The notes: generated by a model not told the origin, from the sequence alone. 35,328 bases of DNA from a virus (IMGVR_UViG_2802429215_000001:1-35328); one strand, 5' to 3'. Counted from the stretch's first letter, positions 11,371 to 15,089 are shown. Numbers and translations: made by a program.

Positions 11371-12531
11371 TCACTTAATTGCTCGCAAGAATGAATCGGT
11401 AACTTCGCTTGCTACCTCGTCTTTGATATGCGTATACTTTTGGGTCATGTATGCTGTTGAATGTCCTAAAGCTGCAGCCATATGTTCAACTGGCACACCA
11501 GCGATTTGACCTTGCGTAGCGAAGAAGTGCCTCATCATGTGAGGCGTTATGTGCATGTCGCAAGCTTCGTTTACTTTTCTAAAAACCGCATAAATTCGTG
11601 AGCAAGCAACTGGCTGTCCTAATGTTTTTTTGGTTTTTTCTCCAGCATCTAAAAAAAGAAAATCATTCTTGTTTAGAATACGCCCAGACTCTTTTGCTAA
11701 TTTGCGAGAGACTTTGGTTGCGTATTGTAATAACTTGGTCGTTTCTTCGTCGACAACAATATAGCGTTCAGAGCTTTTAGTTTTCATACCTTTTCCGTTC
11801 GGACGGTAAAAAGTTCGACTCTCATCTAAAAGTATTTTAAAACGTGACCCAATTAATTGTAACGAGCCTAATTTAACCCCAAAAACTTCGCTTTTCCGGA
11901 GTCCAAAATAAGTAAGTCTAACCATTGCATATTCGTATTTTGTCAATAGTTTTCTAGCGCAAGCGTCCCATTCGCGAAACTCTTCTAAAGAAATTCTTTT
12001 GTTTTTTGGCGGGTTTTTGCTTTCGCCGATATAGATTTTAAAAACCGGATTTTTGTCTAAATAGCCATTTACTACAGCGTCATTGAGCATCGCTTCAAAA
12101 ACGGAATTTATCTGTCTTACAGATGAGCGGGTCAATCTCTTCAGCAATCCAGTCATATATTTCTCGTATTCAAGACGTTCAATATCTTTCAATCGCATAT
12201 TTCCGTATTTTTTAGCAAAGTGTCTGTTGTATACATTCCTTTTGTCGACTATCGTATCTGGTGCCCATCGGCCCGTTTTAATACGGTTCTCGCTGTATAT
12301 TTCCCAATAATCGTTGACCGTCATGTTTTTCTTCGGGTCATACTCATTGTTTGCGATTTTATTTTCAATTTCAGCAAGCGCGTGTCTAGCTTCAGCAAGT
12401 GTTTTTAATCCGCTAGCGCTTATTTCTTTTTTCTTGCCGTTTAATTTAAAGTTTCGGCGAACGTAGTAGCGTTTGCCTTTCTTAGTTTCATATGTATAGA
12501 TATTTGGATATTTTGTTTTATTGTATTTCAT
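11371..12531 (-). CDS. int: Tyrosine integrase with an N-terminal arm-type DNA-binding domain
   Basis: Catalytic motifs GLRKSE, HMMRHFFAT and LGHSTAYMTQKYTH. The N-terminus KYPNIYTYETKKGKRYYVR is typical of the AP2-like arm-binding domain. AAAGGAG RBS. Confidence 0.9.
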   Translation of the reverse strand: MKYNKTKYPNIYTYETKKGKRYYVRRNFKLNGKKKEISASGLKTLAEARHALAEIENKIANNEYDPKKNMTVNDYWEIYSENRIKTGRWAPDTIVDKRNVYNRHFAKKYGNMRLKDIERLEYEKYMTGLLKRLTRSSVRQINSVFEAMLNDAVVNGYLDKNPVFKIYIGESKNPPKNKRISLEEFREWDACARKLLTKYEYAMVRLTYFGLRKSEVFGVKLGSLQLIGSRFKILLDESRTFYRPNGKGMKTKSSERYIVVDEETTKLLQYATKVSRKLAKESGRILNKNDFLFLDAGEKTKKTLGQPVACSRIYAVFRKVNEACDMHITPHMMRHFFATQGQIAGVPVEHMAAALGHSTAYMTQKYTHIKDEVASEVTDSFLRAIK

Positions 12532-13383: not shown

Positions 13384-13665
13384 TTATTTGCCGTTTAATT
13401 TTTTAAGTTCGTCAATGATTTGTTGATTTTGATTGATTAAAATCCAGTTTTGCTCAACAAGCGCAGATAAGTAAGAAAGTTTAGTTTGGTCAACACTATT
13501 ACTGCTAAAAGACAAAGCTAGACCAGCTTTTATTAATCCATTGCCAGCCATTTCATTCGCAATACGTCGGACTTGCTCGTAGCTTTCTTCTGGCAAGCCT
13601 TTAACACCACGCGCAGCAAGATAATCTTCAGTTTTTTCATTTTTTGTTTTTCCAAATAGTGCCAT
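13384..13665 (-). CDS. Hypothetical 93-aa protein co-transcribed with the repressor
   Basis: Its start overlaps the repressor 3' end by 29 nt. GGGGAAG RBS. No transmembrane segment and no family recognised. Confidence 0.6.
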   Translation of the reverse strand: MALFGKTKNEKTEDYLAARGVKGLPEESYEQVRRIANEMAGNGLIKAGLALSFSSNSVDQTKLSYLSALVEQNWILINQNQQIIDELKKLNGK

Positions 13666-14122
13666 TTTCTTCCCCTTTGTTTAATTTATCCAAAATCTTC
13701 TCTGTATTAGATAGCAACTGATTTAAGATATTGGTTTGTTGTTCTAAATAGGATAAGATTTCTTTTTGCAGCTCAAAATCAGCAACCTGTTGGTCGTGGC
13801 TCCTATCAAAGTTTTCTTTTGATGTGCCATGATTAATAGTGACCGAACTATTATTGTAGCTATTTAAGCCGTTGTTATCACCGTGAATTATATTTTGGTC
13901 TTTGAACGTTGAGTCAATATCTGATTTTTCGACTTCGAAATAATCAGCCATCTTTTGAATAATTCCAAAAGAAGGGGCGCTTCTGAGTTTCATATAATCA
14001 GTAATTGTCCCTGGAGCAACACCGATAGCGTCAGCCAACTCTTTCTGAGTGATTCCTTTCTTCTTTCTATAATAGGTAATATTATCAGCGATAATCTGCA
14101 TACGTTGTTTGTTTTTATCCAT
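13637..14122 (-). CDS. cI-like repressor (XRE-family HTH)
   Basis: HTH ITQKELADAIGVAPGTITDYMKLRSAPSFGIIQKMADYF. Divergent from a Cro-like gene across an operator-containing intergenic region. Confidence 0.85.
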   Translation of the reverse strand: MDKNKQRMQIIADNITYYRKKKGITQKELADAIGVAPGTITDYMKLRSAPSFGIIQKMADYFEVEKSDIDSTFKDQNIIHGDNNGLNSYNNSSVTINHGTSKENFDRSHDQQVADFELQKEILSYLEQQTNILNQLLSNTEKILDKLNKGEENGTIWKNKK

Positions 14123-14208: not shown

Positions 14209-14237
14209 TTGACAATACGAAAAAATCGTATTATAAT
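14209..14237 (+). promoter_or_regulatory. Rightward early promoter TTGACA-17-TATAAT
   Basis: Perfect hexamers. The spacer is entirely occupied by the palindrome ATACGA-N5-TCGTAT. Confidence 0.8.
14214..14232. promoter_or_regulatory. Operator palindrome AATACGA-aaaaa-TCGTATT inside the rightward promoter
   Basis: Perfect 7-nt arms. A half-site ATACGA also occurs at 14185-14190. Confidence 0.7.
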
Positions 14238-14288: not shown

Positions 14289-14501
14289 ATGAAATGGACA
14301 TTGGAAGCTCTCCGAATTGCCGCTGGGATGACGCAGGAAGAACTTGCAAGTGAGTTCGGCGTCTCTACCAACACGCTTGCGAAGCTTGAAAACGACAGTT
14401 CGAATATCGGAATGATTATGCTAAAAAAATATATGTTTAAATTTCACGTTGGATTTGATGATATTTTTTTAGGCAAGAAATACGAAAATTTCGTATTTTA
14501 A
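14289..14501 (+). CDS. Cro-like XRE-family HTH regulator
   Basis: ATG at 14289 after AAAGGAAAAAG; the TTG at 14250 is too close to the promoter. HTH MTQEELASEFGVSTNTLAKLEN. Confidence 0.8.
   Translation: MKWTLEALRIAAGMTQEELASEFGVSTNTLAKLENDSSNIGMIMLKKYMFKFHVGFDDIFLGKKYENFVF
14478..14498. promoter_or_regulatory. Distal operator palindrome AAATACGAAA-A-TTTCGTATTT at the 3' end of the cro-like gene
   Basis: Same ATACGA-N5-TCGTAT core as the operator at 14215-14231, about 265 bp away. Confidence 0.6.
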
Positions 14502-14510
14502 CGTAATTAT

Positions 14511-14611
14511 TTCCAGCTGGGTTGATACGGTTCTAGCACAGTTACAAAATAACAATCGGGCTCATTAACACTTTAACAAAAAGTGCTAGAACTATACCAG
14601 CTCAGCTGGAA
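14511..14611 (+). promoter_or_regulatory. Long imperfect hairpin (29-position stem, 43-nt loop) in the early leader
   Basis: 14511-14539 pairs with 14583-14611: 24 Watson-Crick pairs, 3 G-U pairs and 2 mismatches. The G-U pairs exist only in the + strand RNA. Confidence 0.55.
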
Positions 14612-14768
14612 ACCACGCTCTCGGTTAGTAGCTATGGCTCTAACAAGATGATAACCTCCTTTAAAATAAATAAAAAATGCAGTTATTAAATTACTCTAAA
14701 CGATAATATTTGACAAGACAACAACGATTGACGAACTTGTTAGAGCTTTAACTGCTAATCGGGAGCAC

Positions 14769-14795
14769 AAAAAAAGCCACTGAAAATCAGTGACT
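14769..14795 (-). terminator. Rho-independent terminator oriented for the minus strand, just upstream of the xis-like gene
   Basis: On the minus strand: AGTCACTGA-ttt-TCAGTGGCT followed by TTTTTTT. One stem position is G-U on the minus strand and C-A on the plus strand. Confidence 0.6.
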
Positions 14796-14837
14796 TACAA
14801 AACAAAACTACTTACATTATACCAGAAAGGAAACAAC

Positions 14838-15089
14838 ATGGATAGTGTAATGCAACAATTTTCCGATTGGCTGAAAGGCATAATCAAGGAAACATTAAAC
14901 AAGCTTTTGGAAATCGAACGCGATGATGGTTTTAACGAGTTGATGTCGCAAAAAGAAGCATGCAAGTTCCTTGGGATTTCAAAAGACACGTTTCAAACAT
15001 ACCGCTATATGGACGGCTTTCCAAAAGAACTACCAGCTAAACGCTGGTCAAAGCGAGCTATTAAGAAATGGCTTGAAAATCAAATTTAA
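14838..15089 (+). CDS. Xis/AlpA-like HTH DNA-binding protein (possible excisionase or early regulator)
   Basis: ATG at 14838 after GAAAGGAAAC. The motif LMSQKEACKFLGISKDTFQTYRYMDGFPK is typical of the excisionase-type HTH. Confidence 0.6.
   Translation: MDSVMQQFSDWLKGIIKETLNKLLEIERDDGFNELMSQKEACKFLGISKDTFQTYRYMDGFPKELPAKRWSKRAIKKWLENQI

Follow-up and report, generated by a model that had tools for sequence, protein, structure and literature searches.

The 336-nt untranslated gap between the cro-like and xis-like genes of this virus is a composite of three modules: two long hairpins in tandem, H1 and H2, and a leftward promoter-terminator unit, module 3. By sequence comparison, H1 and H2 are paralogous tandem members of one undescribed family of accessory intercistronic elements. 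The comparative data support selection of the hairpin structure in the rightward mRNA. Among the functions that an earlier note on this DNA had proposed, "processing or riboregulatory element" remains the best reading of what is still a candidate function.

Architecture of the gap

The window analyzed here is the whole virus record of 35,328 bp, which is complete, with terminal repeats. Its nearest relatives, both temperate and virulent phages, infect Streptococcus equinus and species close to it. Positions are counted from the first base of the window, and the features discussed below are these:

11371-12531, minus strand: integrase gene
13637-14122, minus strand: cI-like repressor gene (HTH_3)
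14209-14237, plus strand: rightward promoter of consensus type
14289-14501, plus strand: cro-like gene, 70 aa (HTH_3), the upstream neighbor of the gap
14478-14498: distal operator palindrome (inverted repeats) in the 3'-terminal part of the cro-like gene; it bounds the leader on the left and lies outside the hairpin elements
14502-14837: untranslated gap of 336 nt between the cro-like and xis-like genes
14510-14612, plus strand: H1 hairpin, arms 14510-14539 and 14583-14612 (30 nt), about 43 nt between them (inverted-repeat search)
14617-14766, plus strand: H2 hairpin, arms 14617-14647 and 14736-14766 (31 nt), 88-nt conserved loop (inverted-repeat search)
14655-14662, plus strand: anti-Shine-Dalgarno-like tract CCUCCUUU in the H2 loop
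14767-14824, minus strand: module 3, a conserved leftward unit made of a TGnTATAAT promoter, 21 nt, and an intrinsic terminator
14767-14775: A-rich run, read as A's after H2 on the plus strand and as the U-run of the leftward terminator on the minus strand
14774-14796, minus strand: intrinsic terminator hairpin with U-run
14824-14816, minus strand: extended -10 promoter TGGTATAAT, adjoining the RBS of the xis-like gene
14809-14768 (about), minus strand: predicted leftward RNA of ~42 nt, its ends deduced from the promoter and terminator
14826-14831, plus strand: Shine-Dalgarno (SD) sequence AAAGGA of the xis-like gene
14838-14840, plus strand: ATG of the xis-like (HTH_17-like) gene, 83 aa, the right boundary of the gap

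The xis-like gene scored 24.4 bits against Pfam HTH_17, which is below the cut-off of 27. The distal operator palindrome at 14478-14498 has the same core as a palindrome at 14214-14232 in the spacer of the rightward promoter, and a copy of it is kept in the related cro genes of loci L062, L079, L056, L066, and L078, whether or not a hairpin element lies downstream. A search for tRNA and tmRNA genes found none.

The gap had been described as a highly structured leader with no credible ORF, and both statements hold, the observation being stronger than first stated. There is no ORF of 30 aa or more in 14502-14789. The plus-strand RNA of the gap folds at -94.3 kcal/mol, compared with -51.2 ± 4.5 kcal/mol for shuffled sequences (z = -9.6); the minus strand gave a z of -6.5. 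H1 and H2 are the longest inverted repeats of the entire 35-kb window, and their long helices have ensemble pair probabilities of about 1.0.

H1 begins 8 nt past the stop codon of the cro-like gene. It had been reported as a 29-position repeat (14511-14539 with 14583-14611) with three non-Watson-Crick positions, which were G-U only in the plus-strand RNA. The repeat and its three G-U pairs are real, but the arms are 30 nt long (14510-14539 with 14583-14612) and contain five non-Watson-Crick positions, the other two being A-C/C-A on the plus strand. On model R1, H1 scored 82.8 bits on the plus strand versus 49.9 bits on the minus strand. A 12-bp long-range pairing (14636-14647 with 14736-14747) likewise exists, but it is the inner part of the 31-nt repeat of H2, and RNAalifold applied to 11 H2 copies returned the same H2 helix. 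A local hairpin at 14624-14644, which uses some of the same nucleotides, had suggested a switch between two mutually exclusive folds. This hairpin can form alone (-7.4 kcal/mol), but its equilibrium probability is 0 versus about 1.0 for the long helix, and the switch is not borne out.

The first description of the gap did not mention the minus-strand terminator or promoter of module 3. We found that the hairpin at 14774-14796 scores as a terminator on the minus strand only. In 12 variants, the minus-strand hairpin (-9.8 to -13.2 kcal/mol) was always more stable than the plus-strand hairpin (0 to -9.9 kcal/mol), because the mismatches are A-C on the plus strand and G-U on the minus strand. A TGn and a TATAAT-like hexamer are kept 20-23 nt before the hairpin in 34 of 35 distinct module-3 variants, in which the n base and the flanks vary, and the promoter is kept although the downstream genes differ. 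In the window, the TATAAT of this promoter is at 14816-14821, and the AGAAAGGA tract (14824-14831) begins within its TG (14823-14824). Thus, the conserved promoter and terminator predict that an RNA of ~42 nt is made leftward, in antisense to the xis-like gene's 5' leader. The A-rich run also trails copies of the hairpin elements that are without module 3.

In lambda, the short OOP RNA is transcribed leftward from a promoter of its own and ends at an intrinsic terminator. The predicted module 3 RNA resembles RNAs of this type: it is short and leftward, it has its own promoter and terminator, and it is antisense to the part of the rightward early transcript that follows cro. It differs from OOP in that it would be only ~42 nt long, in that it overlaps the 5' leader and not the 3' coding end, and in that its promoter abuts the downstream RBS. 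The promoter looks constitutive, and module 3 would make an antisense RNA that probably damps leaky rightward expression, while the terminator would keep leftward transcription out of the hairpins. In Javan235, Javan231, Javan227, and Javan288, the hairpin element and module 3 are separated by a leftward gene that has a TGGTATAAT promoter of its own and a AAAGGAGGTGATTAT-ATG start (L050:2960-3010, L048:3140-3190, L047:4030-4080, and L083:1470-1510; the ORF in Javan288 is unannotated).

Members, spread, and selection of the hairpin family

We found 54 copies of the family in about 50 Streptococcus phage loci. The hosts of the phages that carry it belong to the S. equinus/bovis complex and S. 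thermophilus. Phages of the P0095 and Javan213 types are among the carriers. The stems are 30-33 bp long and have one design: about 14 bp, a 1x1 mismatch, 2 bp (a U-A/A-U step), a second 1x1 mismatch, and 11-13 bp. This design is common to H1, H2, and two divergent copies in Javan214, and G-U pairs occupy the same positions in H1 and H2. In the window, the stem segments around the conserved mismatches are 14523-14532 / 14590-14599 in H1 and 14630-14639 / 14744-14753 in H2. The outer ends of the arms read TTTCCAGC/GCTGGAAA or CTCTCGG/CCGAGAG. A covariance model built from 20 H1 copies only found the H2 of the window in register and on the plus strand only, at 42.9 bits (E = 4e-8).

Copies are single or paired, and they stand behind antirepressor genes and others besides cro-like genes. 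H2 alone follows unrelated cro-like genes, directly before the RBS of various genes (pSY22, Javan221, and several IMG/VR contigs). In many phages, hairpins of the H1 type whose loops differ widely lie behind antirepressor and other genes, and dozens of virulent S. thermophilus phages share a 113-nt H1-type version at 99-100% identity. The Javan214 prophage of S. equinus Sb05 has two more divergent members in tandem (L020:1280-1530), which the model built from H1 missed at the thresholds used. Javan227 has a hybrid hairpin made of an H1-type 5' arm and an H2-type 3' arm. This copy is of normal size, which ruled out the idea that H1 arms form the ends of a 2-kb cargo in that phage.

The placement of the hairpins between cistrons is regular. 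A same-strand ORF ends 4-18 nt upstream of the hairpin in 43 of the 54 copies. From the hairpin it is about 10-25 nt to the next RBS. The next start codon is ~21-29 nt past the hairpin unless module 3 or a second copy intervenes. Since the hairpin spans the distance from shortly after the upstream stop to about 10 nt before the next RBS, its folding would bring the two cistron ends together.

The Rfam scan that the earlier note had called for gave no matching family: with Rfam 15, there was no match in the element of the window at E values up to 10 and none in four related loci at E values up to 0.5. A full-text literature search found no description of these hairpins.

A CRISPR array in a Streptococcus genome (G338; L025:1400-1600) has, among its spacers, one of 30 nt with a match to the element's 5' arm (TTCCAGCTAGGTTGATACGGCTCTAGC); we take the repeat of this array to resemble that of S. 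thermophilus CRISPR1. Because the spacer matches the conserved 5' arm, the arm is a natural CRISPR target common to many phages. We also considered a CRISPR-repeat or tracrRNA mimic (an RNA anti-CRISPR) from GTTAGAGCT in the 3' arm of H2. This candidate was dropped, since the likeness covers only ~10 nt and is explained by the arm consensus common to H1. Two candidate promoters in the hairpins were set aside as well. A sense-strand promoter using the loop TTGACA has no -10 element at a consistent spacing, and a minus-strand promoter in the 3' arm (TGGTATAGC) is weak, with its final T missing, and is absent in H2.

Covariation was assessed in 41 distinct sense copies over 32 paired positions, with 500 shuffles and slid controls. 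Standard pairs were formed in 91.4% of the cells. Both sides had changed at 18 of the 32 pairs, in 146 cells, compared with 13.8 ± 1.4 pairs and 43.8 ± 7.2 cells in the shuffles. None of the 500 shuffles reached the observed values, and the slid controls gave at most 5 pairs. Within a subfamily, double changes occurred at 3 pairs in H1 and at 0 in H2, where only one-sided changes to or from G-U were seen. Thus, most of the compensatory evidence comes from comparing the paralogous subfamilies.

The imperfect pairs differ between the two strands. The ratio of G-U to A-C was 175:70 on the gene-sense strand and 53:136 on the antisense strand, and the A-C cells of the sense strand lie almost all at the two conserved mismatch positions. 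All 54 copies are co-oriented with the flanking early genes. The earlier note had argued from the G-U pairs of H1 for selection on the plus-strand RNA structure and had asked for folding and covariation in related phages. In these phages, the helices are conserved and covary across subfamilies, and together with the sense-strand G-U excess and the orientation of every copy this supports the argument.

Candidate functions

By analogy with known phage hairpins, we tentatively predict that the H elements are processing or stability hairpins of the RNase III type, with anti-Shine-Dalgarno loops exposed, that set early-gene output. The elements would be transcribed within the rightward early mRNA, each folding to a long helix capped by a large loop. 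Host RNase III would most likely cut the long imperfect stem, or the stem would at least block exonucleases, and processing of the polycistronic early transcript would tune mRNA stability and translation for cro relative to the genes that follow. Cleavage may be guided or restricted by the conserved mismatches. The shared sequence of ~100 nt may also be a recombination joint at which early-gene modules are reshuffled. All 3 host genomes that were searched encode an RNase III domain.

The early mRNA of T7 contains the intercistronic RNase III hairpins R0.3-R1.3. Like these sites, the H elements occur as several paralogous copies between early cistrons just upstream of the next RBS, they have a long stem with a small internal loop, and RNase III would be supplied by the host. 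They share two further features of RNase III sites. They are intercistronic and in sense orientation in a co-directional early operon (54/54 co-oriented; 43/54 starting 4-18 nt after a stop), and a helix of about two or more turns with an internal loop is kept by compensatory change. Unlike the T7 sites, they have longer stems (30-33 bp) and very large loops (33-114 nt) with conserved motifs, and they are optional and differ between close relatives; cleavage here is proposed by analogy. A pure nuclease substrate also does not explain the near-invariant arms across phages, the two conserved mismatches, or the loop motifs (CUCC, CGCAGUU, and UUGACA).

A somewhat unlikely alternative to RNase III-type processing is that the elements are selfish or neutral, MITE-like or linker sequences that spread among phages into intercistronic junctions by recombination or transposition and whose only role is as a homology patch for module exchange. 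Phages would tolerate such an element since, once folded out of the mRNA, it leaves the stop again close to the next start. Presence and absence at identical junctions fit this reading. In other phages, the same upstream gene ends with a stop codon that overlaps the next SD (TTAGAAAGGAG-N-ATG) and with no hairpin, and behind these upstream genes there are empty junctions of the form TAGAAAGGAG-ATG. The element is therefore optional: other phages join those gene ends directly. One group retains only a 14-nt deletion scar of the 5' arm. Since the element is dispensable, any regulatory role would be modulatory at most.

The flanks of the copies point in the same direction. In 46 copies, the upstream flanks fell into 17 classes and the downstream flanks into 19; these occurred in 34 combinations, and the arm sequences are far more conserved than the flanks. 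The hybrid copy of Javan227 also favors spread by recombination or transposition. In one context, H2 is flanked by an imperfect direct repeat of 8-9 nt (GAAAATTAA ... GAAATTAG), and the empty site has a single copy of it.

Related loci contain other forms of these junctions. A damaged H2 at L029:9950-10000 has lost its inner stem and loop, with the basal 12-bp stem left, and a damaged H1 copy at L080:5130-5155 has a truncated 3' arm. A TAG stop inside the next RBS (TTAGAAAGGAG) is the default early-gene junction in L078, L065, L061, L054, L083, L077, L060, and L059. The word TAGAAAGGA is often retained after the hairpin element though it no longer ends an ORF.

A precedent for such a homology patch exists in the PeSLs of T4-type phages. 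These are conserved short intergenic cassettes of the early region, each with a strong early promoter and a terminator stem-loop, that mark where genes have been inserted, deleted, or replaced (Arbiol et al. 2010, PMC2839356). Because PeSLs lie at break points of gene content, they act as joints for modular shuffling (PMC2839356). The H elements, too, sit at break points where the gene content of related phages diverges. Unlike PeSLs, they have no promoter scoring better than 9/12 and no terminator on the sense strand; only the adjoining module 3 has a promoter and a terminator, and both are leftward.

However, several observations do not fit a selfish element. No transposase is associated with the copies, and a consistent target-site duplication for H1 was not found. 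Dispersed copies in host genomes are absent: we found one in S. equinus Sb05, and Streptococcus genomes gave hits in 6 of 401 by BLAST and in 2 of 151 with the covariance model. A host MITE was rejected on these counts. Selection on RNA is indicated by the strict co-orientation, by the bias toward G-U, and by the conservation of the mismatches and of motifs in the loops.

Pneumococcal BOX and RUP elements and Neisseria Correia elements are intergenic inverted repeats that are co-transcribed into mRNA and have many chromosomal copies. The H elements resemble them in their complementary conserved arms and variable or modular center, and in being intergenic, transcribed with their neighbors, and able to form long RNA hairpins. 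In contrast to BOX, RUP, and Correia elements, they are not dispersed in host chromosomes; they occur in phage early operons only and always in sense orientation. No sequence similarity to these elements was detected.

It is unlikely that the loops act as riboregulators, in which CUCC(U)/CCUCCUUU would pair with the SD of the next gene in cis, or with other phage or host mRNAs in trans after processing, and would time or limit delayed-early translation. The loops are 33-114 nt long, of several types, and mostly unstructured, with no conserved secondary structure, and the words CGCAGUU and UUGACA are common to several types. CUCC was present in 15 of 16 representative loops of several otherwise unrelated types, with a chance of 0.02-0.2 per loop; the exception, the window's own H1, speaks against this reading. 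The anti-Shine-Dalgarno tract that the earlier note had reported as CCTCCTTT at 14658-14665 does exist, but its position is 14655-14662, where it is the sole copy on either strand of the window. Its bases have unpaired probabilities of 0.45-0.99 each in the ensemble, and the distance of about 10-25 nt from the hairpin to the next RBS would suit such a role, as would a match of the H2 loop to the host 16S 3' tail over GAUNACCUCCUUU. However, pairing of the tract with the xis-like RBS AAAGGA, which had been suggested, is predicted to be negligible: it is essentially zero at equilibrium, and the tract sits atop a 30-bp helix, far from the SD at the base. Moreover, there is no covariation between the loop motif and the SDs downstream, and a given loop type stands before many different genes.

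The likeness to 16S rRNA extends over positions 14641-14662, in the upper stem and loop of H2 (TAACAAG[G/A]TGATAACCTCCTTT), which resemble the 3' end of the host 16S rRNA without helix 45 at 9/9 and 12/13 nt. The 3' end compared was TAACAAGGT-[helix 45]-GATCACCTCCTTT, and the observation refers to L012:4245-4270 as well as to the window. Gapped local alignment of whole elements to 16S rRNA did not score above shuffled controls. Because the match is short and post hoc and the whole-element alignment is at the shuffled level, we treat it as a curiosity. It is very unlikely that processed hairpins yield stable RNAs whose loops imitate the 16S 3' end (in H2, UAACAAG(G/A)UGAUAACCUCCUUU) and act in trans early in infection, as an SD sponge or as a decoy for factors or defense toxins that recognize the 16S 3' tail.

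We consider it highly improbable that the elements act as DNA, as a cruciform or single-strand hairpin for replication priming or for attC-like site-specific recombination of cassettes. An imperfect inverted repeat with conserved unpaired positions and a variable center, right after stop codons and flanking variable genes, would be compatible with this, and DNA hairpins tolerate G-T pairs too. Integron attC sites have R''/R' core sites (RYYYAAC / GTTRRRY) at their outer ends and are used by an integron integrase. Unlike attC, the H elements have no R''/R' core sites at their outer ends, with GTTAGAG-like words in the inner stem only, and no dedicated recombinase adjoins the copies. Their losses are imprecise deletions and not clean excisions, and the fixed short distances to stops and RBSs, always in the sense orientation, fit an mRNA element.

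The position of the gap directly downstream of cro had led to the proposal of a nut/put antitermination signal. We now regard as scarcely tenable that the nascent early RNA contains a processive signal of this kind for reading through terminators before delayed-early genes. The lambda nut site consists of a boxA consensus and a short boxB hairpin (5-bp stem, pentaloop), with terminators downstream. Read-through at HK022 put requires two neighboring stem-loops that have a fixed position behind the early promoter. The elements resemble lambda nutR and HK022 putR in being structured RNA directly downstream of cro in the rightward early transcript, and in this phage there are two adjacent stem-loops, as in put. 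However, unlike nut, they have stems of 30-31 bp and loops of 43-88 nt, no boxA- or boxB-like feature is conserved (CGCTCT at 14616-14621 is not kept in other H2 copies), and we found no credible plus-strand terminator between 14.8 and 24 kb. Unlike put, they occur singly or paired behind different genes, antirepressor genes among them, and are missing from the same junction in relatives; the element is thus dispensable, and its position is not fixed. The Rho RNA-binding domain was found in 0 of 3 host genomes, with controls in which the domain was detected.

Finally, it is barely credible that the loops encode leftward mini-ORFs, possibly for toxin-like peptides, with CUCC as the complement of their SD and the rightward transcript as their antisense: type B loops do have AGGAG-N6-10-UUG followed by 15-18 hydrophobic codons (MKIIT...) on the minus strand (L048:2410-2460, L050:2195-2250, and L047:2125-2180), in a frame kept across a 3-nt indel in Javan231, Javan235, and Javan227, and Javan220 has a 14-codon ORF after AGGAG, but the H2 counterpart has only 4 codons, type A variants (L068 and Javan414) have lost the start and SD, loop types C and F have no such ORF, the helix is optimized for the plus strand, and module 3 would end leftward transcription before the element.

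Meaning for streptococcal phages

Structured RNAs in phage early transcripts have been little studied outside T7, lambda, and T4. Intercistronic hairpins are a known kind of element; what is new is this optional streptococcal hairpin family with long stems and large loops, which has no match in Rfam 15 and no description that we found. Copies of the family from dozens of virulent dairy phages of S. thermophilus and from rumen phages of S. equinus are almost the same, and at least one CRISPR spacer targets the family. It marks the exact joints of early-gene module exchange, and the natural versions of the same junction with and without the element make clean experiments easy. If the hairpins are indeed processing or stability signals, they would give a handle on how streptococcal phages adjust gene dosage within one early operon in a host without Rho. 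If they are mainly recombination joints or selfish inserts, they would show how mosaicism arises in this group of phages.
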